Origin: a virus | Direction: 5' to 3' (one strand) | DNA length: 37,808 bases | IMG/VR virus record: IMGVR_UViG_3300045988_014803 | Location: 1-37,808 of that record | Shown: positions 17,748 through 37,679 of the stretch, in pieces | Layout of the letters: the number at the start of each line of letters is the position of its first letter | Position numbering within the stretch: position 1 is the stretch's first letter | Made by a program: the position numbers and the translations under genes | Notes under the pieces: model-generated | The model's input: the letters and a program-made list of their open reading frames with translations, nothing else | The model's database searches: none | What the model was told of the DNA's origin: nothing

Positions 17748-17762
17748 TTTTCTATTTGAAAC
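17748..17762 (-). repeat. GTTTC-N5-GAAAC motif copy (GTTTCAAATAGAAAA)
   Basis: Lies 12 nt upstream of the portal start, in the TerL-portal gap. Confidence 0.7.
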
Positions 17763-17804
17763 ATTTTACGCAAATATATTAGCATAAATTCACGTTTCTA
17801 TCAA

Positions 17805-19505
17805 TTAAATCATCTGGAATGTGAAGTCACCTTCATTCAAGAAATAATCCTGCTCAAGAAGGTAAATTGCATTGATAAGTGATACCACCATATCAACTTT
17901 TCCGTTGCTCTTTTTCTTGCTCACATACATATTTTTGTTTGTGTCATATGCACATTTCGCATTCTGAAAGTTGATTTCAAGAAGTTTGTTTTCTGTGTAT
18001 TTGAATTTTTGTGTAAGGATTGCTTCTTTCATCCTCTTTGTTGGTGAATGCAAGACGCTTGGATACTGCTTGATTTGAACCGTGTTATAGCCCTCATTAG
18101 CCAATTTCTGCGCTGTGCTTAATGCATTCCATCTATCATATCCAATCGCCTGTATTTGTACGTTATAACGGCTCTCAAGACTCAAGATGAATTGCTCAAC
18201 AAACGCATAGGAGATAACCCTGTCACCACATGCTAACACCTTCCCACTTTTCAGCAATTCCTGATAGTTCACACGCTCTGATATTGTCTTTTTCGTGATT
18301 CTGTCTGCCGGAATGAACGCAAAACTTTCTGCAAGAATGTTATCATCATCATCTACAGAAACCATAGCGACAGATGTATTATCGTTCGATTCTGAAAGGT
18401 CAACACCTAAATATACTACTCTGCCTGACCAATCAATGTTAGCAACCTTGCATGCTTGAACATCTTTAACATCAATAAATGTCTCTGTGCCCTGTCCTTG
18501 ATAGATAATGTTGCAGTGCTTTGTTACAAAGTTCTCTCGCTCGTTCTCAATGGCAATGGCTCTGGCACGCTTCTTGATAAGATCATCCCAAATTTCAGGG
18601 ATTTCAAGTGCTGACGGATTCGCCTGTTTCAGAATAAGATCATCTGTTTCCCAATCAGACGTTTTGTCAGGCTCATACAGCAGCGCAAATACTGTTTCGT
18701 CTTTCTCAATGCCGTCAAGAATTTTTTTGGCATATGCAACCTCATCCTCGAATGGATTGTCGATTGTCGGATATTTTGTACTGATTACGAACCCAAGTTT
18801 ATTAAAGACGTTAAGCTGCCCTGACCTCATTGCATCGACAGGATATTTATTTGGCAATGCTCCAACTTCATCCGCAATAAATGCATTCGGCATACGTCCG
18901 TCCATACGGTTACTGTATGCCAACGGAATTAACGTGTTTTCATTCGGCTTGAATTTTATGTAGTCCCTTAGCAGCTTGAAACGCTTCGTTCCTTTGTACT
19001 CGTATATCAGCGGACTGCTTTTGATTGTATCTGAGATTGCCCCTTTGATTTCTCTCGACAAAGAACCATCTGGTGCAACTGAAAAGAATTTTGAGAACTT
19101 TGGTTCAGTAAGAAACAGAATGATAAAAATTGTTCCGACTGTATATGTCTTAAAATTCTTTCTGCAAATCTCCAACAGCCCTGTTTCGTATCTGCGTTTT
19201 TTAGGATTCTCCCGATACACCGTGCCTAGCATTGCGATATAAATAAGCCACTGATAACCAGTGGAGCACTTATACATAGACTGTCCGGCCTTGAGGCCTT
19301 TCGGCATAATCAACAGTTTCAGGATGTTCTCAATCTGCTGTACTTTCTTTTCGGATACGAAATACTTTCTGTCTTTTCCCTCAGCAATCCTCATCCATGC
19401 TTTCATTTGTAACTTAACGTACTTCGGAGTGGTTTTCTTTCTAATAGATTTTTTGCAATATTCGTAAGCCTTACTACTCGTCACCGCCATCATCTTCACC
19501 ACCAT
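17805..19505 (-). CDS. terL: Terminase large subunit (Terminase_1-like)
   Basis: About 560 aa. RRYETGLLEICRKNFKT is a Walker-A-like region, with a nuclease-type C-terminal half. Start is ambiguous (19505, 19493 or 19490) and overlaps the terS end. Confidence 0.88.
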   Translation of the reverse strand: MVVKMMAVTSSKAYEYCKKSIRKKTTPKYVKLQMKAWMRIAEGKDRKYFVSEKKVQQIENILKLLIMPKGLKAGQSMYKCSTGYQWLIYIAMLGTVYRENPKKRRYETGLLEICRKNFKTYTVGTIFIILFLTEPKFSKFFSVAPDGSLSREIKGAISDTIKSSPLIYEYKGTKRFKLLRDYIKFKPNENTLIPLAYSNRMDGRMPNAFIADEVGALPNKYPVDAMRSGQLNVFNKLGFVISTKYPTIDNPFEDEVAYAKKILDGIEKDETVFALLYEPDKTSDWETDDLILKQANPSALEIPEIWDDLIKKRARAIAIENERENFVTKHCNIIYQGQGTETFIDVKDVQACKVANIDWSGRVVYLGVDLSESNDNTSVAMVSVDDDDNILAESFAFIPADRITKKTISERVNYQELLKSGKVLACGDRVISYAFVEQFILSLESRYNVQIQAIGYDRWNALSTAQKLANEGYNTVQIKQYPSVLHSPTKRMKEAILTQKFKYTENKLLEINFQNAKCAYDTNKNMYVSKKKSNGKVDMVVSLINAIYLLEQDYFLNEGDFTFQMI

Positions 19506-19845
19506 TAAGGATCTTCATAAGCGGGTCTGCATCCTCGGTTGTATCACTTACGTTATAATTCTTAATGATCTTCATAAGAGTTGCAACTGTTCTATTCGCA
19601 CTATCTGTTGTTGCATTATAATCTTTTACTGCTGGACTAGAATATAAATTTTTTCTGCCTTTAACATATTCTTTTTCAACTAATATTCCATCCTCTTTTA
19701 TAGATTTTTCTAATTCATATAACATAACTAATTGCATTTGATATCTTTTGAATGTAGTTATAAAAAAATAATTACTTTGTACTCCACTTTCTTCTGCAAT
19801 TTTTAAAATCTCTTGTGCTTGTTCAGTTAAAGTCATTTTTGCCAT
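19474..19845 (-). CDS. terS: Terminase small subunit (P27-like family)
   Basis: 123 aa directly upstream of terL. ...YFFITTFKRYQMQLVMLYELEKSIKEDGILVEKEYVKGRKNLYSSPAVKDYN... has the P27-family pattern. Acidic C-terminal tail. Confidence 0.8.
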   Translation of the reverse strand: MAKMTLTEQAQEILKIAEESGVQSNYFFITTFKRYQMQLVMLYELEKSIKEDGILVEKEYVKGRKNLYSSPAVKDYNATTDSANRTVATLMKIIKNYNVSDTTEDADPLMKILNGGEDDGGDE

Positions 19846-19866
19846 ATTATCACCCCCTATAATTTT

Positions 19867-20418
19867 TTATTTAAGATTTTTTATTTGATATGATTTATTA
19901 TAAGTCTTTTGGTCCTTAATCATAATTTTTAAAAAATCTTCTCTTGTTAAATTAGATAATCTAAATACTTCTTCTGGTTTCATTCCTAATTCCTTACATA
20001 TTTCTTTTGTTGTTTTTCCTTCATCCAATAATTCTTTTACTATCGCTTTCATTGGTTCTAATAAATGAGTTCCTCTTGCTCTATTATGTGTGATAGTACC
20101 ATAGACATCTTCTGCATGGTCTTTATGGTCCACAATAACAACTGGAACTTTATTTTTTAATAATGTTTTTAATGGTTCTCTACCTGATACAGTCCATCTA
20201 TGAAAACCATCTATAATTGTATAATCCGGTCTTATAACTATTGGCATAGTCCAACCATTTGTTAATATAGACTGAACTAATAATTCAAGATTTTGTTCTG
20301 ATACTTTATTTGGGTTGTAATTATTTGGTTTTAATAAATCTCTATCAACAAATTTAACATTTTCTAAAGGTTCTAATATATTTTTATTTTCATATTTTTT
20401 TATTTCATTTTCTTTCAT
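19867..20418 (-). CDS. ParB/Srx-fold N-terminal-domain protein (IbrB-like)
   Basis: 183 aa. LLKPNNYNPNKVSEQNLELLVQSILTNGWTMPIVIRPDYTIIDGFHRWTV carries the DGxHR ParB-like core. C-terminal HTH-like segment. Confidence 0.7.
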   Translation of the reverse strand: MKENEIKKYENKNILEPLENVKFVDRDLLKPNNYNPNKVSEQNLELLVQSILTNGWTMPIVIRPDYTIIDGFHRWTVSGREPLKTLLKNKVPVVIVDHKDHAEDVYGTITHNRARGTHLLEPMKAIVKELLDEGKTTKEICKELGMKPEEVFRLSNLTREDFLKIMIKDQKTYNKSYQIKNLK

Positions 20419-20729
20419 ATACTACTCTCCTTAGCTATATCACTATATAAATTAAATTCAAAACTTCTTAACGTTCTTCCTTTGGGGTCTCCACCAATTA
20501 CTATATTACATAACTCTTTGTAATGTTTTTGATTTAAAAATGGTCCATATTTAATTAATATTCTATTAATACGCTTTTTTACATACTGCATAGATTTATT
20601 ATCAAATCTCCATTCTTCTTTTAACATCTCAAAGAATTTATTCTTATAATCAACTTCTTCGTCTTTCTTTGCTTGTTTATTTTTCTTTTGTCTTCTAAAT
20701 AATTCAGTATCATAATAAAGCATTGCCAT
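20415..20729 (-). CDS. Hypothetical protein, possibly the C-terminal fragment of the decayed IbrA-like gene
   Basis: 104 aa. In frame with 20742..21128, separated only by a TAG plus 4 codons. Confidence 0.5.
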   Translation of the reverse strand: MAMLYYDTELFRRQKKNKQAKKDEEVDYKNKFFEMLKEEWRFDNKSMQYVKKRINRILIKYGPFLNQKHYKELCNIVIGGDPKGRTLRSFEFNLYSDIAKESSI

Positions 20730-20741
20730 ATAAGCATTTGG

Positions 20742-21128
20742 CTATCTTTTACAAATCTTATCAAATAGCCCAGGGTAAAATTCACACATGTTAACTAGGC
20801 TTCTTATTGTATCTATGCTAAAAAATTGACTTATTCTTAATCTATTAATTGGAATTCCTACTTGATACATAAATTTATAGGCATCTGGAAATTCTAAGTT
20901 ATTATCTCTTATGTACATCCATACATCTTTATCAGTCCAATCATAGATAGGAAACATTTTTCCTTGTGATGTTTTTATATTTGCCAAATTCATTGATCTT
21001 TGAACACTTTCACTTGCTCTACCACCACTTACTGATAATTCAATTCTACTAGCAGTTTTAAATATGTTTTTTATTCTTGTCTTTGCCATTGTTACAACAT
21101 CAACATTTGAATATTGTTTTTTAATCAA
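20742..21128 (-). CDS. Internally deleted PAPS-reductase-like (IbrA-like) remnant
   Basis: 128 aa. The PP-loop start ELSVSGG is joined after about 24 aa to the C-terminal block FPIYDWTDKDVWMYIRDNNLEFPDAYKFMYQVGIPINRLRISQFF. The catalytic core between them is missing. Confidence 0.6.
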   Translation of the reverse strand: MIKKQYSNVDVVTMAKTRIKNIFKTASRIELSVSGGRASESVQRSMNLANIKTSQGKMFPIYDWTDKDVWMYIRDNNLEFPDAYKFMYQVGIPINRLRISQFFSIDTIRSLVNMCEFYPGLFDKICKR

Positions 21129-21744
21129 GATAAATCATCTCCCCACAAGATGGGCATATAATATATTTCTTCTCATTTTTCTCAGTGCCGACTTTTGTTT
21201 CCGTTACCATTGTTACTTGTTCATTTTTAATTTCTGGTTCTTTTTTAATTTCTTGTTCTTTATAACTTGTTTCTTGCTTTGAATCTTCTTGGGTATATTT
21301 AACATCTGTTATAACTCCATAATTACTAATTGCTTCTTCAACTTGTTCATCTGTTGCAGTCATTTGCTCCAAAATAAACTTGTCATAACCAGCGATTTCA
21401 AAATCTCCCATTCCAGTTATCTCTTGGATGTAATTATTTATTTCATCGTAATTATCTGCACCCAAGCTATAAATTTTATTATCACTTAAAATTAATTTTT
21501 TCTTTTCAACTTCTGATAGACCTGTTTTTCTATAACATTGAACATCTGCTTTATTCATTTTTACTAAAGCAAAATATAAACCATTACCAATTAAGATATT
21601 ATTATCTTCATCAATAACCATTGCTCTTGTTTGTCCAAATTGTTCTACACTTTTAATTAATTCATCAATTTGTTTATCATTATGTTTTCTAACATTCTTC
21701 TCCAATGGTTTTAGATCATTTATTTTTACTACTTCTAATTTCAT
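21121..21744 (-). CDS. Degenerate ParB-like N-terminal-domain protein with C-terminal zinc ribbon
   Basis: 207 aa. VVKINDLKPLEKNVRKHNDKQIDELIKSVEQFGQTRAMVIDEDNNILIGNGLYFAL has GNGL where ParB-type domains have GHGR. Lys/Glu-rich linker, then CPSCGEMIY at the C-terminus. Confidence 0.6.
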   Translation of the reverse strand: MKLEVVKINDLKPLEKNVRKHNDKQIDELIKSVEQFGQTRAMVIDEDNNILIGNGLYFALVKMNKADVQCYRKTGLSEVEKKKLILSDNKIYSLGADNYDEINNYIQEITGMGDFEIAGYDKFILEQMTATDEQVEEAISNYGVITDVKYTQEDSKQETSYKEQEIKKEPEIKNEQVTMVTETKVGTEKNEKKYIICPSCGEMIYLD

Positions 21745-21745
21745 C

Positions 21746-22540
21746 TCATTCTCCTCTACTTTCTAAAAATTCTCTAGCACTTGTTAATCTGCTACTAGCA
21801 TTTATTACAATGCTTTTATCAATATCATATAATTCTTGCCATACTTCATTTTCTGTTTTATCCATTATGGCTCTTTCAGTCCATTCTCCCATTGCTATTG
21901 ATCCTATTAAAAAACCCCTATCCCATTTATAAAATGGTGGTAATTCTATATTGTTATATTTTATATAAGCAAGTAATTGTTCTGCATTCCAATTAGCAAG
22001 AGGAGAAAAGACATCATAATTACTCTTACTAACAATATAATTATTTTCTTTATTTCCACATTGGTTTCCATCTTTGATTCTTCTTCCTGCTATAAATAAA
22101 TCAAAATTATATTTATTAATATCTTTATTTTGTCTTTCCCACTTTGTTGACATCCAATTTTGTCTAGTCTTACCTTTACAAAATAAATACTGTGGATGTT
22201 TTTCTAAATATTCCAGACTATATTTATCAATAACTTCTTCAATTAGATTTTTAGGTTTGTTTTCATTAATCCATTTTCTCATTTCTGGGTATTCATTAAT
22301 GCCACACCAGAATATAGGTGTTGATTTAATTCCTGATCTATTAATAATATCTTGTAGTACAATACTATCTTTACCTGCTACCCAACCATTACAAATATTT
22401 TTATATTTTTGGGATATATCTCTAATAAATGATGTTGTTTCATCTGTTAATTTATCAATATCATATCTAGTGTAAATATTAGTACATTTATCAAATGCTT
22501 CTAACCATTCACTATTATCTTTTATATTTTGTTTTTTTAG
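21746..22540 (-). CDS. PAPS-reductase-family (PP-loop, DndC/IbrA-like) protein; 5' end frameshifted relative to the only ATG
   Basis: The frame is open from 22540. NGWVAGKDSIVL is a PP-loop variant of SGGKDS. IAGRRIKDGNQCG and FSPLANWNAEQLLAYIKYNNIELPPFY are also present. The first in-frame canonical start is only at 22282; an RBS-preceded ATG at 22547 is out of frame across an A7 run. Confidence 0.65.
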   Translation of the reverse strand, partial: LKKQNIKDNSEWLEAFDKCTNIYTRYDIDKLTDETTSFIRDISQKYKNICNGWVAGKDSIVLQDIINRSGIKSTPIFWCGINEYPEMRKWINENKPKNLIEEVIDKYSLEYLEKHPQYLFCKGKTRQNWMSTKWERQNKDINKYNFDLFIAGRRIKDGNQCGNKENNYIVSKSNYDVFSPLANWNAEQLLAYIKYNNIELPPFYKWDRGFLIGSIAMGEWTERAIMDKTENEVWQELYDIDKSIVINASSRLTSAREFLESRGE

Positions 22541-22551
22541 TCAGCATAACA

Positions 22552-23622: not shown

Positions 23623-23638
23623 TGTTCCACGTGGAACA
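23623..23638. promoter_or_regulatory. Perfect 16-bp palindrome TGTTCCACGTGGAACA in the leader of the AT-rich module
   Basis: Self-complementary over all 16 nt. It lies between the promoter at 23690-23719 and the ATG at 23594. Confidence 0.6.
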
Positions 23639-23654
23639 CTTTCGCATGATTTTC

Positions 23655-23669
23655 GCTTCTTTTTGAAAC
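23655..23669 (-). repeat. Motif copy (GTTTCAAAAAGAAGC)
   Basis: Lies in the leader of the AT-rich module, between its promoter and its first ATG. Confidence 0.65.
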
Positions 23670-23689
23670 AAAAAACGGCTTATACTCAC

Positions 23690-23719
23690 ATTATAGCGTG
23701 AATTTGGCCGTTTATCCAA
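23690..23719 (-). promoter_or_regulatory. Sigma-70-type promoter of the AT-rich module
   Basis: The minus strand reads TTGGAT-N18-TATAAT. It is flanked by the inverted repeat AAACGGC...GCCGTTT. Confidence 0.5.
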
Positions 23720-23810: not shown

Positions 23811-24191
23811 TTATTTTAGCCTGTCAATTCTCTGCCTTGCTAGCTTCTTTAAATACTCTTTTTCAATCATTCCTGCATCAGCTAACCTGTGACAGTCTTT
23901 GCATAAGCATATAAGGTTATCGTCTTCCAACCATAGCTCTGGCTTGTCTTTCAACTTATCTATGTGATGCACTTCTATGTTACGGTAGTTATATATACCT
24001 TTGTCCTTGCATACTTCACATAGATAGTTTGCATCTTCTCGTATCTGCTTGCTCTTCTCTGTCCATGCACTCTTGCTCCTGAGCCTTGACTCTTTGTAGC
24101 TGTACTTGTAGTGCTTCTTCTCTACATGACAGACATATCCTTTCGGATGTATCTTCCCACACCTGCTACATGAATAATAGCCTTGTGCCAT
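23811..24191 (-). CDS. HNH endonuclease (packaging-associated type)
   Basis: CSRCGK...CEVCKDKG...EVHHIDKL...NLICLCKDCH is an HNH/zinc-finger signature. The start overlaps the endolysin stop. Confidence 0.85.
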   Translation of the reverse strand: MAQGYYSCSRCGKIHPKGYVCHVEKKHYKYSYKESRLRSKSAWTEKSKQIREDANYLCEVCKDKGIYNYRNIEVHHIDKLKDKPELWLEDDNLICLCKDCHRLADAGMIEKEYLKKLARQRIDRLK

Positions 24192-25264
24192 TACTTAACT
24201 CTGATACGCTGCCCAGCATAAATCTTGTTAGGATTACTGATACCATTCATAGCCTGTAGCTTCTGCCAAGTTGTGCCATATCTGGATGCAATACCTGATA
24301 GTGTATCTCCACTACGTACAGTGTAATATACTGCCTGAGATGCACCTAGCTTCTGGTTGACGATATTCTGAATAGTATTATAGTCATATCCTGCCTGTTC
24401 CAATCTGCTCTTACGGTTGTTACCGTCTCCCCACTTTCCAGCAATTACCTCACTTGCAATCTGATCATTTGACTTTCTAACAGGTGCAACCTTCTTGTTT
24501 ACAATGTCCTGAATAACATTGTAATCATATCCTGCTTGTGTAAGTCTGTTCTTGCGATCTTCACCATTTCCCCAAACTCCTGCAATTACCTCGTCTGCTA
24601 CCTGTTCATTGCTTTTTTTAACAGGTGTTGGTGTAACTGGTTTTGTTTCACCTTTTGGATTTGCGTACTTGTGCCATGCTGTTGCATCACCATAGAATTT
24701 ATCTAAGTCAAGGTTCCTACTATATCCTGCCAGTTTTCCAGAGCTTGAATACTGTCTGATAGCGCAATCATATGCTCCCTCATTCCATGGATGTGCCTGA
24801 TATCCTGTTGCGTTGTTATCTGCATACTGTGCAATCCATAAGCCATAGTCTCCAATGCCAGACACTTCTTTATACAAGCTTGCAGATGCATAGATTAAAG
24901 GTTTAACCCCCGTTTTTTCTACAATTCGATTGCACCAGTTACTAATCCATGCTCTAGCTGGACCACCTGTCCCACACAGTGCGTTGCCCTGCCACTCCCA
25001 GTCTAAGCAAAGAATAGCTTCGCCAATATATCCTTGAATGTTCTTCAAGAAATGGTCTGCTTCTGCTACTGCATTTCCACCATTTGCATAATGGTATACA
25101 CCTAATAGCTTTCCGTTAGCTTTTGCCTGCTGATAAGCTCTGTCACAATCAGGATTCACATATCCTGTACCTTCTGTAGCTTTGCAAATTACAAAGTCAC
25201 ATGGTACAACACTTAAATTAATTCCTGCTTGATAGCTTGCAATATCAATTCCGTTTAATGCCAT
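24191..25264 (-). CDS. Endolysin: GH25 muramidase + 2 CW_7-like repeats + LysM
   Basis: N-terminus [14 protein letters not shown]...[13 protein letters not shown]...GVYHYA indicates GH25. Two repeats VIAG.WGNG..RK.RL.QAGYDYN.IQ.IVN.K. C-terminal [30 protein letters not shown] is a LysM. Confidence 0.9.
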
Positions 25265-25303
25265 TTTTTTCGCCCTCCCTAATATACTTCAATATGAACA
25301 GTG

Positions 25304-25660
25304 CTAATGATTCTGTCCTCGTTCATTTTCCAAGTCCTTGATTCTTTGTTCGTGATCATCCTTGTATTTGAACAGCGTATTTACACGTTCCGTAACAAGA
25401 ATTAGTTGCTCTGATACCTTTTTCAGCTGCTCAGTCTTTTCGCCGTTATCTGCCATCATTTTCTTTGATGTATCATAGAATTCGTCAAGCTTTACGCTGA
25501 TTTTTACAAAATTCTTTTCGATGTCCATCTGCCGATTCTTTTCTCGCTCTGCCTGTTCTTCCTGACGTTTTTTGCCACCTGCAAATGTGTTAATTAACGT
25601 ACATGCCAGTGATGTCAAGGAAATAAGTAATGCGATGCTTACACTTGCTTCAGGAGTCAT
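25304..25660 (-). CDS. Membrane-anchored coiled-coil protein of the lysis cassette
   Basis: 118 aa. One N-terminal TM segment, then a charged coiled coil. Lies between the holin and the endolysin. Confidence 0.6.
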   Translation of the reverse strand: MTPEASVSIALLISLTSLACTLINTFAGGKKRQEEQAEREKNRQMDIEKNFVKISVKLDEFYDTSKKMMADNGEKTEQLKKVSEQLILVTERVNTLFKYKDDHEQRIKDLENERGQNH

Positions 25661-25864
25661 TTATTCCACCTTTTTATAGTTCGCCGAACTAATCTGTAAA
25701 CATGCTCCAATGCACGTTCCAATTGCCGAAATAGTTCCTGCAATTGCTTCTGCATAATCCCATCCCCAGATTTTGCCGAGCGTGATAATTAAAGCTGAAA
25801 ATGCGTTCGTTCCAACAAGTGCAACCCATTTTAAATTGTCATATGTTTTATTAGAAAATACCAT
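25661..25864 (-). CDS. Putative holin
   Basis: 67 aa with two hydrophobic segments and a charged C-terminus (NYKKVE). Immediately upstream of the lysis genes. Confidence 0.65.
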   Translation of the reverse strand: MVFSNKTYDNLKWVALVGTNAFSALIITLGKIWGWDYAEAIAGTISAIGTCIGACLQISSANYKKVE

Positions 25865-29508: not shown

Positions 29509-29523
29509 GTTTCTATTTGAAAC
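29509..29523 (-). repeat. Motif copy (GTTTCAAATAGAAAC, perfect palindrome arms)
   Basis: Lies 24 nt upstream of the ATG at 29484. Confidence 0.75.
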
Positions 29524-29695: not shown

Positions 29696-29833
29696 CTATT
29701 TCATCCAGCCTAAGTTATATTCCTTGATCAACTGCTTTGCCTGTTTAACTGTAAAGTCAGACTTTTTAATACCAGTTTCACCGTTTCTATTTAAAATCTG
29801 TAATGCTAATTCTTTGATTTCTTTTGTTGTCAT
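29696..29833 (-). CDS. Hypothetical 45-aa protein
   Basis: Not in the ORF track. First ORF after the consensus promoter at 29864-29892. MTTKEIKELALQILNRNGETGIKKSDFTVKQAKQLIKEYNLGWMK. Confidence 0.45.
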   Translation of the reverse strand: MTTKEIKELALQILNRNGETGIKKSDFTVKQAKQLIKEYNLGWMK

Positions 29834-29863: not shown

Positions 29864-29892
29864 ATTATAACACTATAATATAGAAAAGTCAA
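29864..29892 (-). promoter_or_regulatory. Near-consensus sigma-70 promoter with extended -10
   Basis: The minus strand reads TTGACT-N17-(TGt)TATAAT, immediately after the terminator at 29921-29942. Confidence 0.7.
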
Positions 29893-29920
29893 ACGTTTTC
29901 ATGACATTTTTTGACAAATT

Positions 29921-29942
29921 AAAAAAGGGCTTTTATGCCCTT
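29921..29942 (-). terminator. Rho-independent terminator
   Basis: The minus strand reads AAGGGC-ataaaa-GCCCTT followed by TTTT. Confidence 0.7.
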
Positions 29943-29944
29943 CC

Positions 29945-30064
29945 TTATCTGTTTTCGATAATAGTTCTTTTCTGTAATACAGCACCCACAAATATTGTGA
30001 TCATTCCAATCACCAATACTGCACATCCCAGAACTTCAAACGCCACTTCGAAAAATGTTTTCAT
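29945..30064 (-). CDS. 39-aa hydrophobic (single-TM) peptide
   Basis: Not in the ORF track. AAAGGAGA RBS 5 nt upstream. MKTFFEVAFEVLGCAVLVIGMITIFVGAVLQKRTIIENR. The stop abuts the terminator. Confidence 0.5.
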   Translation of the reverse strand: MKTFFEVAFEVLGCAVLVIGMITIFVGAVLQKRTIIENR

Positions 30065-31006: not shown

Positions 31007-31035
31007 ATAATATCATAATATATATGCGATTGCAA
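31007..31035 (-). promoter_or_regulatory. Sigma-70 promoter with extended -10
   Basis: The minus strand reads TTGCAA-N17-(TGa)TATTAT, about 35 nt upstream of the ATG at 30971. Confidence 0.55.
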
Positions 31036-31053: not shown

Positions 31054-31068
31054 GTTTCTTTTTGAAAC
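31054..31068 (-). repeat. Motif copy (GTTTCAAAAAGAAAC; arms extend to TGTTTC/GAAACA)
   Basis: Lies directly after the DnaC-like stop and upstream of the promoter at 31007-31035. Confidence 0.7.
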
Positions 31069-31070: not shown

Positions 31071-31907
31071 TTACCCGTTCAAAATATCCATGAGCCTTGA
31101 ATCCTGCGCTTTGTTCTTTCTTCTGTCCTCACCGCTTACCAATACAGGAAGGCACATCTCAATAATACGGCTGTATATTCTGGCTTTGCTTGTATCTTCT
31201 GTATGGTACAAGTCTGAATACTTCAGATTCGTTGTAATAATCATTGGCTTCCCACTTCTGTATCTTGCATCAATGATGTTGTACACAAGTTCGTTAACAT
31301 ATTCAGTGTTTCGTTCAATCCCTAGATCATCAATCACCAAAAGGTCAAACTCGTTAAGGCTGTCCAGATATTTCTGCTTTCCTTCATACATTCCCTGAAG
31401 GGTATTGATGATTCGAGTAAAATTTGTCACAAGACACGGTACGCCATTGTCAATTAATTCATTTGCGATGCATGAAGCAAGAAACGTCTTACCTGTTCCA
31501 ACTCCTCCAAATAAGATAAGTCCTTTTCCTGCATCCTTGAAGTCCTCAAACCGTCTGGCATAATTTCTGCACATGTCGCTAGCCTTCTTTGATTTCTGGT
31601 CATCGTGATCAAATCGGCATTTCTGAAGCTCTCTGTCTGGAAAGCCTGTGTTCCTATATCCTTCAATTCGTGCCAGTCTGTCCTGTTTCTTTTTCTCTTC
31701 TTCCTTCCTATCATTTTCAGCAATTAAGCATGAACACATTACAGGAACATATACCCCGACCGCCGACATCCATTTTCTTCGCGGCTCATTGCATTTTCGA
31801 CAGTAAATCATATTGTCTTTGATATATTCAGTGCTTTCATCGCAATGTTCTAACATCCTCTGGATTGCTTCTTCTGTTGGCTTTTCATTTTTAATGATAT
31901 CTTGCAT
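31071..31907 (-). CDS. DnaC/IstB-like AAA+ helicase loader
   Basis: Walker A GGVGTGKT, Walker B LLVIDDLG, and RYRSGKPMIITTN. N-terminal Cys cluster CRKCNE...MCSC. Confidence 0.85.
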   Translation of the reverse strand: MQDIIKNEKPTEEAIQRMLEHCDESTEYIKDNMIYCRKCNEPRRKWMSAVGVYVPVMCSCLIAENDRKEEEKKKQDRLARIEGYRNTGFPDRELQKCRFDHDDQKSKKASDMCRNYARRFEDFKDAGKGLILFGGVGTGKTFLASCIANELIDNGVPCLVTNFTRIINTLQGMYEGKQKYLDSLNEFDLLVIDDLGIERNTEYVNELVYNIIDARYRSGKPMIITTNLKYSDLYHTEDTSKARIYSRIIEMCLPVLVSGEDRRKNKAQDSRLMDILNG

Positions 31908-31928: not shown

Positions 31929-31943
31929 GCTTCTATTTGAAAC
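31929..31943 (-). repeat. Motif copy (GTTTCAAATAGAAGC)
   Basis: Overlaps the stop of the initiator gene, 21 nt upstream of the DnaC-like ATG. Confidence 0.7.
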
Positions 31944-32704
31944 TATTTGCCGTAAAACATAGCCATGAGTTCTTCTTCAGACCCATAACCGTTCTGGTCG
32001 TATTTCTTCTCTGGCTGTTTCTCCTGCTTTGTGTATTCATTCTTTAAAGGGAAGATACATTGCCAGTTATTAGTGATTGACTGATTTAGAATAGCAATCT
32101 TTGTATCGTCTGTATTTCCTAATTCATCAAGTTTCTTTAACATAAGTTTAAGAGCATACTCTGTCATAGGCTTCTTGATGAATGATCTCATCTGTAAGAA
32201 TGCTTTCAACGCATTCTGTAAATCTTCATTTTGTGTATACTCTGCAATCTGCTCATCATACGATTTCGGCTTGCTCTTTCTTTCTTTCTTACTTAATTTA
32301 TTATTTGTATTATTATCTGTATTAATATCTGTATTACTTTCTTTCAAATTATGATATTCTGCCTTACAATTTTTGATATTCTGCCTTTCAAAATTTGAAA
32401 GTCTGCTTTTCAATTCTCGTTTTCTTCCATCAAAGTTTTGCACGTAAATATATCCACAATCAATCAGTTTTCTAATAGCAGTTGACACTTTTGTTTTGCT
32501 GCACTGGCAGAACTCTGCGAGGTGTTCATTGCTTGCATAACATCCTTTTTCTCCGTTGTCTAGGCTGTCAATTTCCGTAAGAATAATCTTTTCTAGCGCA
32601 TTAAGCCTAGTGTCTAGCCACACTTTCTTTGGAATCCATACGCCCTTGAAGTCTCTGCTTTCGTTCATGTTTTTGCTTCCTTTCTTTTCTGTATCATCAA
32701 TCAT
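31943..32704 (-). CDS. Replication initiator / replisome organiser (N-terminal winged-helix, C-terminal DnaD-like)
   Basis: FKGVWIPKKVWLDTRLNALEKIILTEIDSLDNGEKGCYASNEHLAEFCQCSKTKVSTAIRKLIDCGYI, and a C-terminal ...KPMTEYALKLMLKKLDEL...ILNQSITNNWQCIF. An alternative start lies at 32668. Confidence 0.7.
   Translation of the reverse strand: MIDDTEKKGSKNMNESRDFKGVWIPKKVWLDTRLNALEKIILTEIDSLDNGEKGCYASNEHLAEFCQCSKTKVSTAIRKLIDCGYIYVQNFDGRKRELKSRLSNFERQNIKNCKAEYHNLKESNTDINTDNNTNNKLSKKERKSKPKSYDEQIAEYTQNEDLQNALKAFLQMRSFIKKPMTEYALKLMLKKLDELGNTDDTKIAILNQSITNNWQCIFPLKNEYTKQEKQPEKKYDQNGYGSEEELMAMFYGK
32303..32336. repeat. Three 12-bp-phased iteron-like repeats inside the initiator gene
   Basis: Plus strand: ATTTGTATTA (32303), ATCTGTATTA (32315), ATCTGTATTA (32327). 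They lie in an AT-rich stretch encoding the Asn/Thr/Asp linker. Confidence 0.6.
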
Positions 32705-32850
32705 GTGATTGCCTTTCTAACGAAAAAACTGCACAGCTTTAATAGTTTCGCACCATATCAAGCCATACAGTTCTCGTATCTATTCAGTTGTTTACCTACT
32801 CAGCAGGTGCGAACTACTGAACAGACATTATAGTTTATCACTACTCTTTA

Positions 32851-32879
32851 ATATTATCATCATAATGTGATTATGTCAA
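32851..32879 (-). promoter_or_regulatory. Sigma-70 promoter with extended -10 for the replication genes
   Basis: The minus strand reads TTGACA-N17-(TGa)TAATAT. The -35 overlaps the stop codon of the DUF1064-like gene. Confidence 0.6.
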
Positions 32880-33274
32880 AACATTTTGCTGACTTTTGTT
32901 TCTATTTGAAACTTCTTGATGTCTTTACTCGTAACGATGCTGATTGTGTAATCTGGATATTTGTACTCAAACAGTTTTTGCTTTAACCGAAATACGTCCG
33001 TAATTACCGCTGTAGAGCCTTTTACGTCTTCGATTATAATTCTATCACCCTCACACAAGATGTATCTAAAATCGGCTTTATACACGGTTTTACGCCATGT
33101 CTTGCCATTCTTCTTGAATGTCGGTATAAGTTCATACTCCGGTTGTAATTCCAAATCACGAATAACTCCTGCACGTTCCAGAATCTTCAACTGTGCATAC
33201 CGTTCAGCTTCAAGCTTTGAGTCAAATTTGATGCCATCTGCAACCGTCTTTGTATTGTGATATTTTCTGTACAA
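32876..33274 (-). CDS. DUF1064-like (PD-(D/E)XK-type) endonuclease
   Basis: DGIKFDSKLEAERYAQLKILERAGVIRDLELQPEYEL...YKADFRY...IEDVKG. The probable TTG start at 33274 follows a GAGGTGA RBS. The ORF-track ATG at 33337 overlaps the upstream gene. Confidence 0.7.
   Translation of the reverse strand: MYRKYHNTKTVADGIKFDSKLEAERYAQLKILERAGVIRDLELQPEYELIPTFKKNGKTWRKTVYKADFRYILCEGDRIIIEDVKGSTAVITDVFRLKQKLFEYKYPDYTISIVTSKDIKKFQIETKVSKMF
32898..32912 (-). repeat. Motif copy (GTTTCAAATAGAAAC, perfect)
   Basis: Lies in the last codons of the DUF1064-like gene (KFQIET), just upstream of the promoter at 32851-32879. Confidence 0.7.
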
Positions 33275-33284
33275 ATAAGTCACC

Positions 33285-33608
33285 TCATAGATAGTTTTTC
33301 CCAAAAATTTCAATGAACTCGCTTGTAGTCCATCCATATTCGTCCATCGCTCTTTTCTGCCCCATCTTTTTCAGATGCATGTCAAACTCGTGTCCCTTGC
33401 TGCAATGCACACCATACTCAGACATGTTGTGATCTTGTGGTCTGATGAATACGACAAGACCATACTTGATTGACTTTTTCCTGTTGGCAGTTCCGAAAAA
33501 AATTTCATGCCTGACAGTTCCATATACCCGCTTAGAAAAATATATGTAGCAGTGCCCCTTCGCGATGAACATGCCTTCATGCATAATGCAGAACTCTTCA
33601 TTCATCAT
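33285..33608 (-). CDS. Conserved hypothetical phage protein
   Basis: 107 aa. HEIFFGTANRKKSIKYGLVVF...GWTTSEFIEIFGKNYL recalls a Firmicutes phage family that normally carries CxxC/HH motifs; those motifs are absent here. Confidence 0.55.
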   Translation of the reverse strand: MMNEEFCIMHEGMFIAKGHCYIYFSKRVYGTVRHEIFFGTANRKKSIKYGLVVFIRPQDHNMSEYGVHCSKGHEFDMHLKKMGQKRAMDEYGWTTSEFIEIFGKNYL

Positions 33609-33681
33609 CGCATCACCGCAAAAAAAGTCTTTACAAAGAACAGAAAAATTCCGAAAAATGTTTTAAATACTACAATCAGAA

Positions 33682-34551: not shown

Positions 34552-34565
34552 ACCGTTATTACCGC

Positions 34566-34970
34566 CTAGAATGGCAAATCAGACGAATTCATGTCGAATC
34601 CTGTATTACCCCAACCATTATCAAGATTGCTATTGTTTTGACCGCTAGGGCTATCAGAACTCATTTCACGCTTACGTTCCAAGAACTGAAAGCTTGTCGT
34701 GACTACTTCTGTCACATAAACCATTCTGCCGTCCTTCTCATAGTTTCTTGTCTGGATGTGCCCAGTCACACCAAATAAGTCGCCTTTATGAACATATTTT
34801 GCGATTGTATCGGCTGCTTTGTCCCACGCAATACAAGGAATGAAGTCTGCGCCGTCTTCCTTTTTTCTTCTGTCAACTGCCAATGTGAATGAGACAACAT
34901 GAGTACCGTTCTGCGTTCTCCGCTCCTCAACATCCTTCGTAAGTCTTCCAATCAAACTAACATTGTTCAT
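34566..34970 (-). CDS. ssb: Single-stranded DNA-binding protein
   Basis: OB-fold start MNNVSLIGRLTKDVEERRTQNG...FTLAV. Gly/Asn/Ser-rich tail ending in the acidic tip DLPF. Confidence 0.9.
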   Translation of the reverse strand: MNNVSLIGRLTKDVEERRTQNGTHVVSFTLAVDRRKKEDGADFIPCIAWDKAADTIAKYVHKGDLFGVTGHIQTRNYEKDGRMVYVTEVVTTSFQFLERKREMSSDSPSGQNNSNLDNGWGNTGFDMNSSDLPF

Positions 34971-36153: not shown

Positions 36154-36763
36154 GACTGTCCGCCTTTCTCTGCTTCATGATCTTACCGATTAACTCGCTT
36201 GCCTTCGACATCGGCATATCTTCCGGCTTTTCAATCTTGTTCATCTTTAACAGCTTTTCAAGATTCTCACCTGTATAGTTCTTGCTCAATACTTCTACCT
36301 GTCTTGGTGATGCCTTGCGTTCCGTGCTGTTCGTTGCTTCATCATCATTTCCGTCTGTATCTTCTTCAGTTGCTATACCCAAGAATGCACCTAATGAGTA
36401 ACGCTTGCGGTATGTGATCTCTGCACCCTCATCCTGAAGCTTCGCACCTTCCTTAACTGCAAACGGGTAAGTGTTTGTCTCGAATACATGTCCACTCTTA
36501 TGTACCAGAATACAGCGAACACCGTTTACGCCGTTCTCATCAACTCCAATAGGCTGTAATAATGCAAAGTTCTGATTTTCCTTGATTTTGTTTAAAATGT
36601 TGTCTAATGGCACATAATCAAATGCCTTGTGCATCCATTCCCCTGTTTTTCGATTTTGCACAGAATAGTTGACCTGTGCGGACTTTTCTAGTCCTCTTAA
36701 CTGATTTACCAACTCGATTAAATCAGTTGCTACTTCTTTTGTAATGTTTTTAAATCCTATCAT
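36146..36763 (-). CDS. ERF-family single-strand annealing protein
   Basis: ...FDYVPLDNILNKI...ILVHKSGHVFE...QDEGAEITYRKRYSLGAFLGIATEEDTDGNDD has the ERF pattern. The ATG at 36763 (MIGFKN) is preferred over the ORF-track 36814. Confidence 0.75.
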   Translation of the reverse strand: MIGFKNITKEVATDLIELVNQLRGLEKSAQVNYSVQNRKTGEWMHKAFDYVPLDNILNKIKENQNFALLQPIGVDENGVNGVRCILVHKSGHVFETNTYPFAVKEGAKLQDEGAEITYRKRYSLGAFLGIATEEDTDGNDDEATNSTERKASPRQVEVLSKNYTGENLEKLLKMNKIEKPEDMPMSKASELIGKIMKQRKADSHE

Positions 36764-36884
36764 TTTTCTTGTTTTCCTTTCTTTTTGAAACATCTTTTGA
36801 AACATCAATTTCATATTGTTTAATAATTTTGATTAGTTCTTCTGCGTTACCGCTTTTTACGATTTCTGCTACGATTTCAAACAT
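36750..36884 (-). CDS. Hypothetical 44-aa protein
   Basis: Not in the ORF track. GGGAG RBS. MFEIVAEIVKSGNAEELIKIIKQYEIDVSKDVSKRKENKKNDRI. Confidence 0.4.
   Translation of the reverse strand: MFEIVAEIVKSGNAEELIKIIKQYEIDVSKDVSKRKENKKNDRI
36777..36791 (-). repeat. Motif copy (GTTTCAAAAAGAAAG) plus an adjacent half-site repeat at 36794-36805
   Basis: Lies 13 nt upstream of the Erf ATG. TTTTGAAACAT occurs twice in tandem. Confidence 0.6.
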
Positions 36885-36888
36885 GTTT

Positions 36889-37083
36889 TCAGCTCCCAAT
36901 TATTAAACTCGCATTTTCCTTACCAAATACATTGCAGAACACTTTGACAAGCTTTGTAGAAGGATTGTGCGTTCCCTGTTCAATACAAGCATAATGGCTA
37001 GTTGATATTCCAAGCTTTTCTGCAACATCCTTCTGAGTTAATCCCTTTGAAATTCTGAATGCTTTCAGTTCTGCTCTTTTCAT
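36889..37083 (-). CDS. Cro-like XRE-family HTH protein
   Basis: MKRAELKAFRISKGLTQKDVAEKLGISTSHYACIEQG.... The ATG at 37083 follows an AGGGGG RBS. Divergent from the cI-like gene. Confidence 0.8.
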   Translation of the reverse strand: MKRAELKAFRISKGLTQKDVAEKLGISTSHYACIEQGTHNPSTKLVKVFCNVFGKENASLIIGS

Positions 37084-37107
37084 TTCGTGCCCCCTTTCTG
37101 CATACAT

Positions 37108-37135
37108 ATAATACCACTGACTCATCAAATTGCAA
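37108..37135 (-). promoter_or_regulatory. Early promoter for the cro-like operon
   Basis: The minus strand reads TTGCAA-N16-TATTAT in the divergent intergenic region. Confidence 0.55.
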
Positions 37136-37168
37136 CTACTTTTCATCATAAGTTGATTATTTATTATT

Positions 37169-37183
37169 GTTTCAAATAGCTAC
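37169..37183 (+). repeat. Motif copy (GTTTCAAATAGCTAC, one arm degenerate)
   Basis: Lies in the cro/cI divergent region, 48 nt upstream of the cI-like ATG. Oriented with the plus-strand gene. Confidence 0.55.
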
Positions 37184-37231
37184 GGTATGTTATCATCGAA
37201 ATATAAACTTTTTTAGGTGGTGTAAAAAATA

Positions 37232-37573
37232 ATGATTAACAATAAGTCAATCGGAAGGAAACTCAAAGAACTACGTACCTCACGTGATCTTAAACAGTCT
37301 GAGCTTGCTGACCTTGTCGGAATTTCAAGACCTGCAATATCGAATATTGAGTCTGGAAAACGTTCCTTGACTCTTTCCACTTTGAAACGTTTTTGTGAGG
37401 TTTACGGCATTGATATATCTTACTTTGGAATTGATACGTCAAGCTATGATGAAGCGACAGACCTCACACTGCGCATCGAGTCTCTGTTTCACGATCTTCC
37501 TGAACCTGAGAAGGATGAACTTTATCTGAAGATAATGAAACTGTACCTAGACAGCAAGAATGTTTCTGATTGA
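37232..37573 (+). CDS. cI-like XRE-family repressor (no peptidase domain)
   Basis: IGRKLKELRTSRDLKQSELADLVGISRPAISNIESGKRSLTLSTLKRFCEVYGI is an HTH. The 45-aa C-terminal region has no S24 Ser/Lys motifs. Confidence 0.8.
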   Translation: MINNKSIGRKLKELRTSRDLKQSELADLVGISRPAISNIESGKRSLTLSTLKRFCEVYGIDISYFGIDTSSYDEATDLTLRIESLFHDLPEPEKDELYLKIMKLYLDSKNVSD

Positions 37574-37679
37574 AACCATCTGTCGAAAAAAAAGAGTTAT
37601 CCAACTCATACTCAATTTTGATATCTTCTTGTTCGGCATAAAGATTAAACAGCAAAGAATAGAAGCTTTCAGCGTCCAT
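37464..37679 (-). CDS. Questionable convergent ORF overlapping the repressor 3' end
   Basis: GGCGGTGA RBS 5 nt before the ATG at 37679 (MDAESFYSLLFNLYAEQEDIKIEYELDN...). It crosses a T8 run and overlaps the cI-like gene by 110 nt antisense. Confidence 0.25.
   Translation of the reverse strand: MDAESFYSLLFNLYAEQEDIKIEYELDNSFFSTDGFNQKHSCCLGTVSLSSDKVHPSQVQEDRETETRCAV
37562..37576. repeat. Motif copy (GTTTCTGATTGAAAC, perfect arms)
   Basis: Overlaps the stop codon of the cI-like gene. Confidence 0.6.

Follow-up and report, generated by a model that had tools for sequence, protein, structure and literature searches.

An enriched 15-base palindrome in a temperate gut siphophage, a candidate distributed operator read by its cI-type XRE protein

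Repeated sites in other phages

Among the described systems with which the palindrome studied here can be compared, that of the Streptomyces phage phiC31, whose conserved inverted repeats (CIRs) are reportedly bound by the phage repressor, resembles the arrangement we propose by an inverted-repeat operator tied to repressor autoregulation and by highly conserved copies that recur in the intergenic early region beside early promoters. The phiC31 host belongs to a different phylum, its repressor is unrelated and much larger, its repeat measures 17 bp and its early promoters are not of the sigma-70 type; furthermore, we know of no fixed placement at -61 described for phiC31. The OR region of the lambda/434 type shares with our locus a dyad about 15 bp long, the half-sites of which are separated by one helical turn, located between divergent cI and cro genes and overlapping the cI promoter. 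It differs by its three adjacent operators, whereas here the switch holds a single copy, the core of the cro promoter has none and most copies lie kilobases away, at internal promoters. The boxB of lambda nut likewise measures 15 nt, folds into a stem of 5 bp capped by an A-rich pentaloop, and has a copy shortly downstream of cro, whereas the present genome has at least seven copies, most of them upstream of promoters, and variants that break the stem.

The Cluster A stoperators (L5, Bxb1, TipsytheTRex) represent one repressor site in many copies genome-wide, found in promoters and short intergenic gaps and oriented along transcription (PMC9283540). They are asymmetric 13-mers bound by a monomer using two domains (PMC9283540), whereas our motif has a dyad symmetry that would suit an XRE dimer, clusters in the early region and in most cases precedes a promoter; the Cluster A repressors are moreover unrelated, none being present among the PDB sequence matches of cI. 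The 17-bp palindrome TGTTCGGNNNCCGAACA of Cluster O is also a dyad repeat with many, mostly intergenic copies, an A/T-biased centre and an orientation that tends to follow transcription, and it has been implicated in gene gain and loss between repeats (PMC4351075); it differs by its more than 30 copies per genome, and a link to promoters or to a repressor gene is not reported for it (PMC4351075). Finally, the start-associated sequences of Cluster K are short repeated motifs directly upstream of the ribosome-binding sites of many genes (PMC3203893), which recalls our promoter-less copies and the related loci L271 and L161. They are asymmetric 13-mers with a tight spacing to the start codon (PMC3203893), whereas here it is the -35 hexamer that stands at a tight distance, and the start spacing varies.

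The palindrome in the window

The window, that is the whole stretch of 37,808 nucleotides analysed, is the circular complete genome of a temperate siphophage from a gut metagenome. The motif has two arms of 5 bp, 10 bp apart from centre to centre, and an A/T-rich middle. Its consensus GTTTCAAAWAGAAAC has 7 matches with at most one mismatch, 10 with at most two and 21 with at most three, against 0.01, 0.61 and 5.9 expected from dinucleotide-preserving shuffles; exact GTTTC-N5-GAAAC occurs 4 times (0.03 expected in the same shuffles), and zero shuffles matched the observed counts at any mismatch level. The 15-base palindrome is therefore real and enriched far beyond chance, as a sequence-only reading of this DNA had estimated. 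The coordinates, sequences and strands of the nine copies listed by that reading are all exact, and so are its distances to the starts at 29484, 31907 and 36763. The copies and the features around them are the following.

17748-17762, minus strand: copy GTTTCAAATAGAAAA between terminase and portal, preceded at 13 nt by the -10 of a promoter-like TTGATA-17-TAATAT (17804-17776)
23655-23669, minus strand: copy GTTTCAAAAAGAAGC at the head of the packaging/late block, directly downstream of a hairpin (23713-23670)
29509-29523, minus strand: exact motif, 24 nt before the ATG at 29484, without promoter
29783-29797, minus strand: two-mismatch match ATTTTAAATAGAAAC within a 45-aa ORF
31007-31035, minus strand: predicted promoter TTGCAA-17-TATTAT with TG-extended -10, part of the 31054 cassette
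31054-31068, minus strand: exact motif GTTTCAAAAAGAAAC, canonical cassette copy 2 nt past the DnaC-like stop, followed after 18 nt by the -35 at 31035
31929-31943, minus strand: copy GTTTCAAATAGAAGC overlapping the TAG stop of the replication initiator, 21 nt before the DnaC-like ATG at 31907, without promoter
32851-32879, minus strand: predicted sigma-A type promoter TTGACA-17-TAATAT with TG-extended -10, part of the 32898 cassette, preceding the replication-initiator gene (31943-32704)
32898-32912, minus strand: exact motif GTTTCAAATAGAAAC, canonical cassette copy within the final codons of the DUF1064 gene, followed after 18 nt by the -35 at 32879
36777-36791, minus strand: copy GTTTCAAAAAGAAAG within a 44-aa ORF, 13 nt before the Erf ATG at 36763, the first copy downstream of the cro module
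36889-37135, minus strand: cro-like XRE gene (ATG at 37125 or 37149) and its predicted promoter TTGCAA-16-TATTAT (37135-37108)
37169-37183, plus strand: switch-region copy GTTTCAAATAGCTAC between cro and cI, ending 7 nt before a TATCAT -10 (37191-37196)
37232-37573, plus strand: cI-like gene, whose 113-aa product is an XRE helix-turn-helix protein, conserved in its C-terminal region, and is proposed to read the motif
37562-37576, no strand assigned: copy GTTTCAATCAGAAAC, with perfect arms and a different centre, overlapping the cI stop, between cI and the serine integrase gene

The genes are mainly carried by the minus strand, as are all seven strong copies, and the sole plus-strand copy (37169-37183) precedes cI, the sole plus-strand gene nearby; each asymmetric copy is oriented like its downstream gene, so that the claim that orientation follows the downstream gene holds. 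Just 4 copies are perfect palindromes, the AAAWA centre being found in 29509, 31054 and 32898 and another centre in 37562. The copy at 37169 has two mismatches, with a GCTAC arm; it extends over both the -35 and the spacer of the putative cI promoter, and its distance upstream from the cro -35 is 33 nt. The match at 29783-29797 fits the chance expectation and is probably outside the system.

Only the copies at 32898 and 31054 keep a complete cassette of motif and promoter; at others the promoter is lost and a ribosome-binding site adjoins. The placement just before a promoter proposed by the sequence-only reading is right for these two, but the late-region copies 23655 and 17748 lie just downstream of promoter-like hexamers. 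Upstream of the former, the hairpin holds a promoter-like TTGGAT-18-TATAAT (23719-23690), listed by the scan as TGGATA-17-TATAAT, and 16 nt downstream of this copy is a further palindrome (23623-23638). A strong promoter of the window, 29892-29864, has a terminator upstream in place of the motif.

That reading had suggested checking conservation at the same junctions in relatives. The copy at 36777 is kept at the same place in all relatives whose cI is at least 71% identical, and a copy between cI and int is also found in the L065/L192 and L161 lineages. At the 31929-31943 junction most of the relatives sampled have motif and promoter, and the relatives that share the upstream flank of 29509 have the promoter cassette there; since the window has no promoter at either place, both copies mark mosaic break-points.

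A predicted promoter cassette and its association with cI

The comparison of 167 distinct motif contexts, taken from the window and about 55 related loci, reveals an anatomy that is visible only by comparing relatives and is absent from the sequence-only account. A promoter scoring at least 9 of 12 is found within 45 nt of the motif in 92 of the 167 contexts, and about half of the copies stand at a fixed distance upstream of a -35 hexamer: the -35 of a sigma-A promoter starts exactly 18 nt after the motif in 80 copies, against 2 of 2160 random positions. This exact spacing centres the motif near -61. Rarer offsets of 8 and 28 nt preserve the helical face, and at least five different promoter types have the same arrangement. 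In a first set of 36 cassettes with the 18-nt offset, the motif bases are 97-100% invariant except at the W position, and the 6 nt separating the two A-tracts vary (33-78%). On this comparison the motif is the upstream part of a conserved predicted promoter cassette, whose length, from motif to -10, is about 62 bp.

The motif accompanies one family of cI genes. Nearly every locus that spans the early region and encodes a cI at least 62% identical to that of the window has 2-6 copies, all of them on the early-gene side and zero in the 10 kb of the integrase/tail side; the exception, L157 (cI 61%), has a variant palindrome instead. Of the 29 loci whose XRE matches are weaker or partial, 28 have no copies, three of them being fragments of the same cI family. 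The 29th, L167, belongs to a low-GC group which has nothing in common with the window but cI, cro, one 70-aa ORF and an integrase of 25% identity, and which still carries motif clusters. In a motif-first scan, the multi-copy loci without this cI family had only single coding-region matches. Phages encoding this cI family are thus the only ones in which motif clusters appear.

In at least seven lineages, a site of the motif type lies over the predicted cI promoter (the window family; L154/L155/L264; L266/L267/L271; L268; L065/L158/L192/L269; L193/L194 and L195), 28-57 nt upstream of the cI start and covering the -35 and spacer. L193, L194 and L195 are Bacilli genome bins, and the ORF listings of L193 and L195 contain no divergent cro-like ORF of at least 40 aa. 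The chromosomal cI homologues are not phage-like in appearance and are without cro.

The best PDB sequence matches of cI are C.BclI and C.AhdI, dimeric XRE regulators with dyad operators near their own promoters; the structure model of cI has a low confidence (pLDDT 56). The sequence-only reading had suggested an operator for a dimeric regulator and named XRE proteins, an AbrB-like protein and the winged-helix initiator. The first candidate is retained and narrowed to cI by the cI-promoter site and the family link, whereas no AbrB-like regulator was found in the ORFs scanned, some small ORFs being outside the scan; the winged-helix initiator is unlikely, we infer, as the scattered copies are unlike origin iterons. 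The recognition helix of cro does not track the motif, being TPSQYSK(V/I)KHG in L158/L192 versus STSHYACIEQG in the window with the same exact motif. In L157, the cI recognition helix reads ARSTMSNIE versus SRPAISNIE, and the repeated palindrome GTTGGCAAATAGCTAAC, located at junctions, has symmetric changes in both arms, a covariation in favour of cI as the reader. This covariation of helix and half-site rests on few independent lineages, and L265, whose helix is of the A class and whose upstream region displays by eye a palindrome TTTAC...GTAAA, fits it imperfectly; both points argue against the cI-operator reading.

A candidate cI operator and the alternatives

The model we propose, to which we give a probability of about 0.55 on these sequence comparisons, is that the motif is a distributed DNA operator read by a dimer of the 113-aa cI-type XRE protein. 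The copy over the cI promoter would provide autoregulation. Of the further copies, one lies between cI and the integrase gene and one after the cro module, several strong internal early promoters have one each at about -61, and two are just downstream of promoter-like sites, at the head and in the interior of the late block. If cI occupied these sites in the lysogen, all these transcription units would stay silent: at the promoter cassettes, the bound protein could interfere with RNA polymerase or trap it via the upstream A-tract (alpha-CTD) region, and at the promoter-less junctions it could act as a roadblock.

Several observations argue against the cI-operator reading. The core of the cro promoter, the main lytic one, has no copy, the only one being near -75; the switch of the window has one imperfect copy instead of the usual array of two or three operators; and the variant motif of L157 is absent from the switch region of that locus. 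The promoter 29892-29864 does without the motif, and the asymmetric AAAWA centre, which always lies along transcription, is unexplained by a symmetric dimer. Furthermore, the site at the internal promoters is at -61, classically the position of an activator and not of a repressor, and the core promoters concerned have no second site.

An unlikely alternative is that the motif is a class-I type activator site or the site of another protein, for instance a host factor, the cro-like protein or an early protein that lacks annotation. This protein, bound at -61, would recruit the alpha-CTD of RNA polymerase, turning on delayed-early promoters, and would shut the cI promoter by occupying its -35 and spacer, where the copy is indeed in a repressing position. 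The centre at about -61, with variants at -51 and -71 on the same helical face, and the flanking A-tracts, which resemble UP subsites, are in keeping with it, as is the dual activator-repressor nature of the controller proteins that are the best PDB matches of the helix-turn-helix; cro-type proteins activate and repress in other phages. However, with sequences near consensus (TTGACA, extended -10), the cassette promoters should be able to work without an activator. As for the reader, cro helices differ among lineages with an identical motif, and L193 and L195 have a motif-type site at the promoter of the cI homologue without any cro. A host promoter type is made less likely by the full cassette pattern being found in none of 185,579 species-representative genomes, and ten further ORFs show no other DNA-binding domain.

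It is quite improbable that the motif acts in the sense transcript as an RNA hairpin whose geometry would recall boxB (5-bp stem, conserved AAAWA pentaloop) and to which a phage protein would bind, so as to bring about antitermination, processing or the translational control of the gene that follows. The canonical copies do fold at -3.7 to -4.6 kcal/mol (z-scores -6 to -7.7), always along transcription; the arm variants GAAGC and GGAAC and the L157 type still pair, by G-U or compensatory changes, and many copies adjoin the ribosome-binding site in L271 and in the L161 group. But the switch-region copies lie between the predicted divergent promoters and upstream of both, so that they are probably untranscribed and would act as DNA, and the abundant GTAAA, GAAAA, GAAAG and GCTAC variants disrupt the stem without compensation, the GTAAA form having no predicted fold. 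An exact 18-nt spacing to the -35 would be meaningless for an RNA element, the distance to the start codon ranges from 13 to 44 nt, and there is no Rfam match. The hairpin suggested by the sequence-only reading is consequently disfavoured.

Least probable of all is a conserved linker serving mainly module exchange between related phages, by homologous or short-homology recombination through the phage's Erf/exonuclease system, with no regulatory role, which would leave unexplained the dyad symmetry, the fixed promoter spacing, the copy over the cI promoter in chromosomal homologues and the invariance of the motif while adjacent bases vary, 15 bp being moreover short for recombination. The recombination joints put forward by the sequence-only reading nevertheless have some reality: between the window and 35 relatives, 12.8% of the homology end-points lie within 15 bp of a copy versus 1.6% expected, an 8-fold enrichment; at the initiator/DnaC and 29509 junctions the upstream flank is common and the downstream sequence differs between phages, and in relatives cI has been deleted twice independently, each time with an end-point in the switch-region copy or next to it. 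Most break-points are elsewhere, however, for example at 34950, 33500-33650 and 32650, and the joints look like a by-product. In the cI-operator model, the presence of the same 15-mer at many gene junctions would offer micro-homology for module exchange as a side effect.

In conclusion, if the motif is indeed the operator of the cI-type protein, one protein could govern many transcription units.

Copies of the palindrome in the phage genome

The 15-bp palindrome GTTTC-N5-GAAAC is a real feature of this temperate phage, and it extends family-wide. All the copies that the sequence-only reading had listed were confirmed by pattern scans, and their number lies above that in dinucleotide-preserving shuffles of the window at every mismatch level, no shuffle having equalled the observed count.

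Matches found in the window and expected from the shuffles
Exact GTTTC-N5-GAAAC: 4 found, 0.03 expected
GTTTCAAAWAGAAAC with at most 1 mismatch: 7 found, 0.01 expected
GTTTCAAAWAGAAAC with at most 2 mismatches: 10 found, 0.61 expected
GTTTCAAAWAGAAAC with at most 3 mismatches: 21 found, 5.9 expected

The two arms, perfect in four copies, are 10 bp apart from centre to centre, about one helical turn. The minus strand, on which nearly all genes lie, carries every one of the best seven copies, and the sole plus-strand copy (37169-37183) stands before the plus-strand cI gene; all copies are co-oriented with transcription. Seven of the nine belong to the early and immunity region and two to the late block, and exact copies are also present between structural genes in a relative, L093. 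The extra two-mismatch match at 29783-29797, within a small ORF, is compatible with a chance origin. A tandem duplication, GATGTTTCAAAA-GATGTTTCAAAAAG at 36777-36815, gives a second partial left arm in a 44-aa ORF upstream of Erf.

The ends of the window (1-99 and 37710-37808) carry a 99-bp direct repeat. The assembly, of about 37.7 kb, is therefore circular, and cI (stop 37573) in consequence directly precedes the serine integrase gene (ATG 39 = 37748). An ENA metagenome scaffold of 37,764 bp matches the window.

Main features of the genome
39-1373, plus strand: serine integrase
37232-37573, plus strand: cI-like XRE gene
36889-37125, minus strand: cro-like XRE gene, divergent from cI
after cro in gene order: Erf, exonuclease, SSB, NinB-like, dUTPase and DUF1064 genes
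31943-32704: replication initiator
31071-31907: DnaC-like loader
then many small ORFs, followed by holin and endolysin, an HNH gene and a ParB/PAPS-reductase-like block
17805-19505: terminase, then portal, head and tail genes

A search for near-identical DNA with positions 17000-37808 gave no match among deposited phage genomes. The large terminase protein (17805-19505) is 75% identical to that of the Lactobacillus delbrueckii group b phages (c5, LL-Ku, phiLdb), the nearest genomic cI homologues in a cI-based genome scan are in metagenome bins only, labelled Eubacteriales or uncultured Bacilli, and about 50 related contigs are found in IMG/VR and metagenomes. The lysis cassette (24191-25864: Dp-1-type holin, 118-aa ORF and GH25/CW_7/LysM endolysin) follows the early genes and precedes the HNH/terminase block, its usual place being after the tail genes. 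Two ParB-like and two to three PAPS-reductase-like ORFs (19867-22282), which may form a DNA-modification or anti-defence module, occupy the interval from the HNH gene to the terminase genes. Scanning ten further ORFs against Pfam for another DNA-binding regulator returned ArdC-N only, plus sub-threshold YabA-like and DUF5408 matches.

Both late-block copies lie just downstream of promoter-like hexamers (23719-23690 and 17804-17776). The head of the packaging/late block also contains the perfect 16-bp palindrome TGTTCCACGTGGAACA (23623-23638), 16 nt downstream of copy 23655 (copies are named by their lower coordinate), and the equivalent place in the distant relative L271, near 18020, presents the motif, about 15 nt and then TGTTTCACGTGAAACA; this second palindrome may be a late-regulator site or packaging-related. 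A long hairpin (23670-23713, AAACGGC...GCCGTTT then a T-run), conserved in L038 and L053, encloses a promoter-like TTGGAT-18-TATAAT and stops exactly at the start of copy 23655.

A promoter cassette at a fixed distance

Scanned for exact matches to one motif variant, IMG/VR yielded 119 loci; about 25 align to the window, with two to six co-oriented copies each. The aligned contexts share the unit a/t-A-GTTTCAAAWAGAAAC-AAAA-N5-C-AAAAWGT-R-TTGACA-16/17 nt-TAATAT/TATTAT/TATAAT, in which the -10 is often TG-extended. Among 36 such cassettes, the motif positions are 97-100% invariant except W, the AAAA and AAAAWGT tracts beside the motif are invariant, and the six bases between these A-tracts are variable (33-78%). 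A larger set comprised 167 distinct contexts from the window and about 55 related loci, and a context was considered promoter-linked when at least 9 of 12 hexamer positions matched within 45 nt of the motif. This was so for 92 contexts, and in 80 of them the -35 begins exactly 18 nt past the motif, an offset seen at 2 of 2160 random positions of the same loci. About half of all copies stand 18 nt upstream of a -35 hexamer, and the infrequent offsets of 8 and 28 nt are one helical turn away. The arrangement is common to at least five promoter types differing in spacer and hexamers and is therefore not one orthologous site counted repeatedly. A host promoter type is argued against by the absence of the full cassette pattern from 185,579 species-representative genomes.

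In the window, the canonical cassettes are those of copies 32898 (promoter 32879-32851) and 31054 (promoter 31035-31007). Copies 31929 and 29509 have an upstream flank in common with relatives that carry motif and promoter, and run in the window directly into a ribosome-binding site. The motif is not an obligatory promoter part, since within 29864-29950 the strong promoter at 29892-29864 (TTGACT-17-TATAAT, 11/12, TG-extended) has an intrinsic terminator upstream in the motif's place; this promoter is homologous, including its upstream A-tract region, to a 28-nt-offset cassette in the related locus L114 (motif at 9096).

When the -10 hexamer is set at -12 to -7 of the predicted start, the motif centre falls near -61. 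Such a fixed position, on the polymerase face and next to A-tracts, is that of a class-I activator site or of a UP-type upstream promoter element. Against this role, the core promoters are near consensus with a TG-extended -10, not the weak cores that depend on an activator. No second, weaker motif copy was found over the cassette core promoters.

The cI gene, its family and its promoter site

Loci centred on cI homologues were taken from IMG/VR, species-representative genomes and metagenomes. Where cI is at least 62% identical and the early region is covered, nearly every locus carries two to six motif copies, all on the early-gene side and none in 10 kb of the integrase/tail side; the exception is L157, whose cI is 61% identical and has a changed helix. 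The loci with weaker or partial XRE matches lack the motif in 28 of 29 cases, three of which are fragments of the window's cI family, and the 29th, L167, is a member of a low-GC group (L161, L162, L164, L167) that shares nothing with the window beyond cI (34%), cro, an integrase of 25% identity and a single 70-aa ORF. This group carries exact motif-promoter cassettes and at least seven copies of GTTTCAAAWAGTAAA directly before ribosome-binding sites, and L271, a member of the cI family with a GC content of 32%, has seven co-oriented GTT(T/A)CAAAWAGAAAA copies. The two-copy loci L001, L009, L039, L099 and L117 (constant 3267-nt spacing), L079 and L100 were set aside as chance matches in coding regions. 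In L161 (12800-14200), and also in L162, L164, L167 and L081, two to three tandem units downstream of the integrase gene consist of a terminator, the exact motif, a promoter-like region whose spacer contains a third GAAAC half-site, and a small gene; the other junctions of the group have the non-palindromic GTTTCAAAWAGTAAA.

In every lineage of the cI family examined, a motif-type site is present 28-57 nt upstream of the cI start and ends 5-13 nt before the putative cI -10. In the window, 7 nt separate the end of copy 37169-37183 from TATCAT, the putative cI -10, and at least seven lineages have the site placed in this way. This layout is usual for an autoregulated helix-turn-helix gene.

Switch-region sites in the cI family
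Window family: GTTTCAAATAGC(T/A)AC
L154, L155, L264, L268: GTT(A/G)CAAAAAGAAAA
L266, L267: related degenerate variant, found by eye in the upstream sequence
L065, L158, L192, L269: exact or 1-mismatch motif
L193, L194, L195: GTTTC-N5-GTAAA

The Bacilli-bin loci L193 and L195, for which ORFs were listed, show no divergent cro-like ORF of at least 40 aa, unlike phage switch regions, and the cI-promoter copy is the only good site there; L194 is nearly the same as L193 around the site. In L193 (10358-12094), which comes from an uncultured Bacilli bin, two 284-aa paralogues stand in tandem after the cI homologue, and by eye their N-terminus looks antirepressor-like. An additional copy between cI and the integrase gene occurs in the window (37562-37576), L065/L192 and L161. 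The switch region (37080-37260) contains a single site in which 7 or more of the 10 arm positions match, centred at about -75 from the cro promoter start, with neither an operator over the main lytic promoter core nor multiple adjacent operators, and a search of this region for alternative operator repeats gave none convincing.

The cI recognition helix of L157 reads ARSTMSNIE in place of SRPAISNIE. This locus is devoid of the motif and has three exact copies of aAGTTGGCAAATAGCTAAc and a promoter-linked variant, both arms being changed symmetrically at +/-7 and +/-4 with respect to the window motif; the recognition helices of the cro proteins do not follow the motif. The covariation between helix and half-site is suggestive only and anecdotal, because the L157 type represents a single independent lineage (L157/L163) in a motif scan of IMG/VR, and L265 does not fit it neatly. 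The repeated palindrome of L157, GTTGGCAAATAGCTAAC, differs from the window motif; it occurs at gene junctions (3264, 3677, 5603 and 11581) and is absent from the cI-cro region of this relative, where TAACGTTC is seen twice by eye, together with ACAATAC-N6-GTATTAT. Among PDB sequences, cI is best matched by dimeric XRE regulators, with C.BclI and C.AhdI, both controller proteins, at the top; a single-sequence AlphaFold2 model (pLDDT 55.8) was too poor for a fold search.

The variation of the sites also bears on a role in RNA, as a hairpin of the boxB/nut type. The canonical 15-mer can form a 5-bp hairpin of -3.7 to -4.6 kcal/mol, and the GAAGC, GGAAC and L157 arm types keep the pairing, some variants through G-U, whereas the GTAAA, GAAAA, GAAAG and GCTAC variants break the stem. 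The switch-region copies are upstream of both predicted divergent promoters, about half of the copies precede a -35 hexamer by 18 nt instead of following their promoter within the transcript as boxB does, and it is from this hexamer, rather than from start codons, that the distance is constant; at gathering thresholds, no Rfam family was detected in the whole window. The switch-region position, the stem-breaking variants and the -35 spacing point to a function at the DNA level.

A motif repeated at many junctions may also aid recombination, which we read as a by-product. Between the window and 35 relatives, 12.8% of the homology end-points lie within 15 bp of a copy (1.6% expected), mainly at 31929 and 29509, but most end-points are away from the copies. 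In the cI-deleted L012 and L032, one deletion end is in or beside the switch-region copy, and in our reading break-points and deletion ends occur at the motif because the same word is present at many junctions. These deletions (L012:5440-5600 and L032:6055-6140), which remove cI and part of the integrase gene, look like the kind that makes a phage virulent; that of L032 begins right after the motif copy, and the L012 junction falls within it, where an A-rich stretch has micro-homology to the integrase gene.

A distributed operator as the proposed model

The best supported reading of these sequences is that the motif is the operator of the cI-type XRE repressor, with a probability that we put at about 0.55. 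One copy of the conserved, oriented dyad covers the cI promoter, one follows the cro module and one stands between cI and int; others are found near -61 of several early promoters and in the late block. In the model we propose, a cI dimer would bind all of them. Its binding at its own promoter would result in autoregulation, between cI and int it would limit the read-through into the integrase gene, at the promoter-less junctions and late-block sites it would block elongation or initiation, and at the cassettes it would repress from upstream. The A-tract centre of the motif and the invariant AAAA and AAAAWGT tracts would lie roughly at the docking place of the alpha-CTD, and cI could act there by occlusion of this docking or by over-stabilisation of RNA polymerase at a consensus promoter, as has been described for the phi29 p4 protein at the A2c promoter. 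Against the operator model, no copy covers the cro promoter core, the -61 position is typical of activators, and the model does not account for a nearly symmetric site that keeps a constant orientation.

A more specific form of the model, which we consider rather improbable as a whole, is that uncultured gut Firmicutes phages have their whole early region silenced by a small dimeric XRE repressor acting from one dyad site at a fixed -61 upstream of otherwise consensus sigma-A promoters, in an upstream alpha-CTD/UP-element mode, with a polar roadblock at promoter-less junctions, the system being stoperator-like but of independent origin. To our knowledge, no such upstream mode of repression has been described for cI-type repressors.

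We regard the motif system as a variant of the distributed repressor-site network, which is a known kind; a full-text literature search with four exact motif strings retrieved no paper. The conserved inverted repeats (CIRs) of phiC31 are a close analogue: in that network, the same inverted repeat is found at the repressor promoter and in conserved intergenic copies of the early region. The phiC31 repressor is a much larger, unrelated protein. As in operators of the lambda/434 type, the sites are dyads whose half-sites are spaced by about one helical turn, and one copy in the cI-cro intergenic region overlaps a switch promoter; unlike them, no multiple adjacent operators cover the lytic promoter core. 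Among the closest analogues are also the stoperators of Cluster A mycobacteriophages (PMC9283540) and an unexplained 17-bp palindrome of Cluster O phages (PMC4351075). Stoperators are likewise numerous, placed in short intergenic gaps and oriented with transcription, and they halt elongating RNA polymerase depending on their orientation, but they are asymmetric 13-bp sites of a monomeric two-domain repressor, in contrast with the palindrome and the 113-aa XRE protein considered here. With respect to all three, the CIRs, the stoperators and the Cluster O palindrome, the present system differs by a small XRE protein, presumably dimeric, with a dyad site, by its occurrence in uncultured gut Firmicutes phages and by its fixed register upstream of promoters.

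If the operator model is true, regulation in a widespread family of temperate phages of the human gut would be wired by one 15-bp word and one 113-aa protein, and the system would be a Firmicutes counterpart of the actinophage stoperator and CIR networks. In genomes of uncultured phages, the word would then help to predict promoters, immunity groups and transcription units. How does a repressor at -61 of a consensus promoter work? Besides raising this mechanistic question, the motif would mark module swaps and the ends of virulence-making cI deletions, thereby linking regulation to genome mosaicism.
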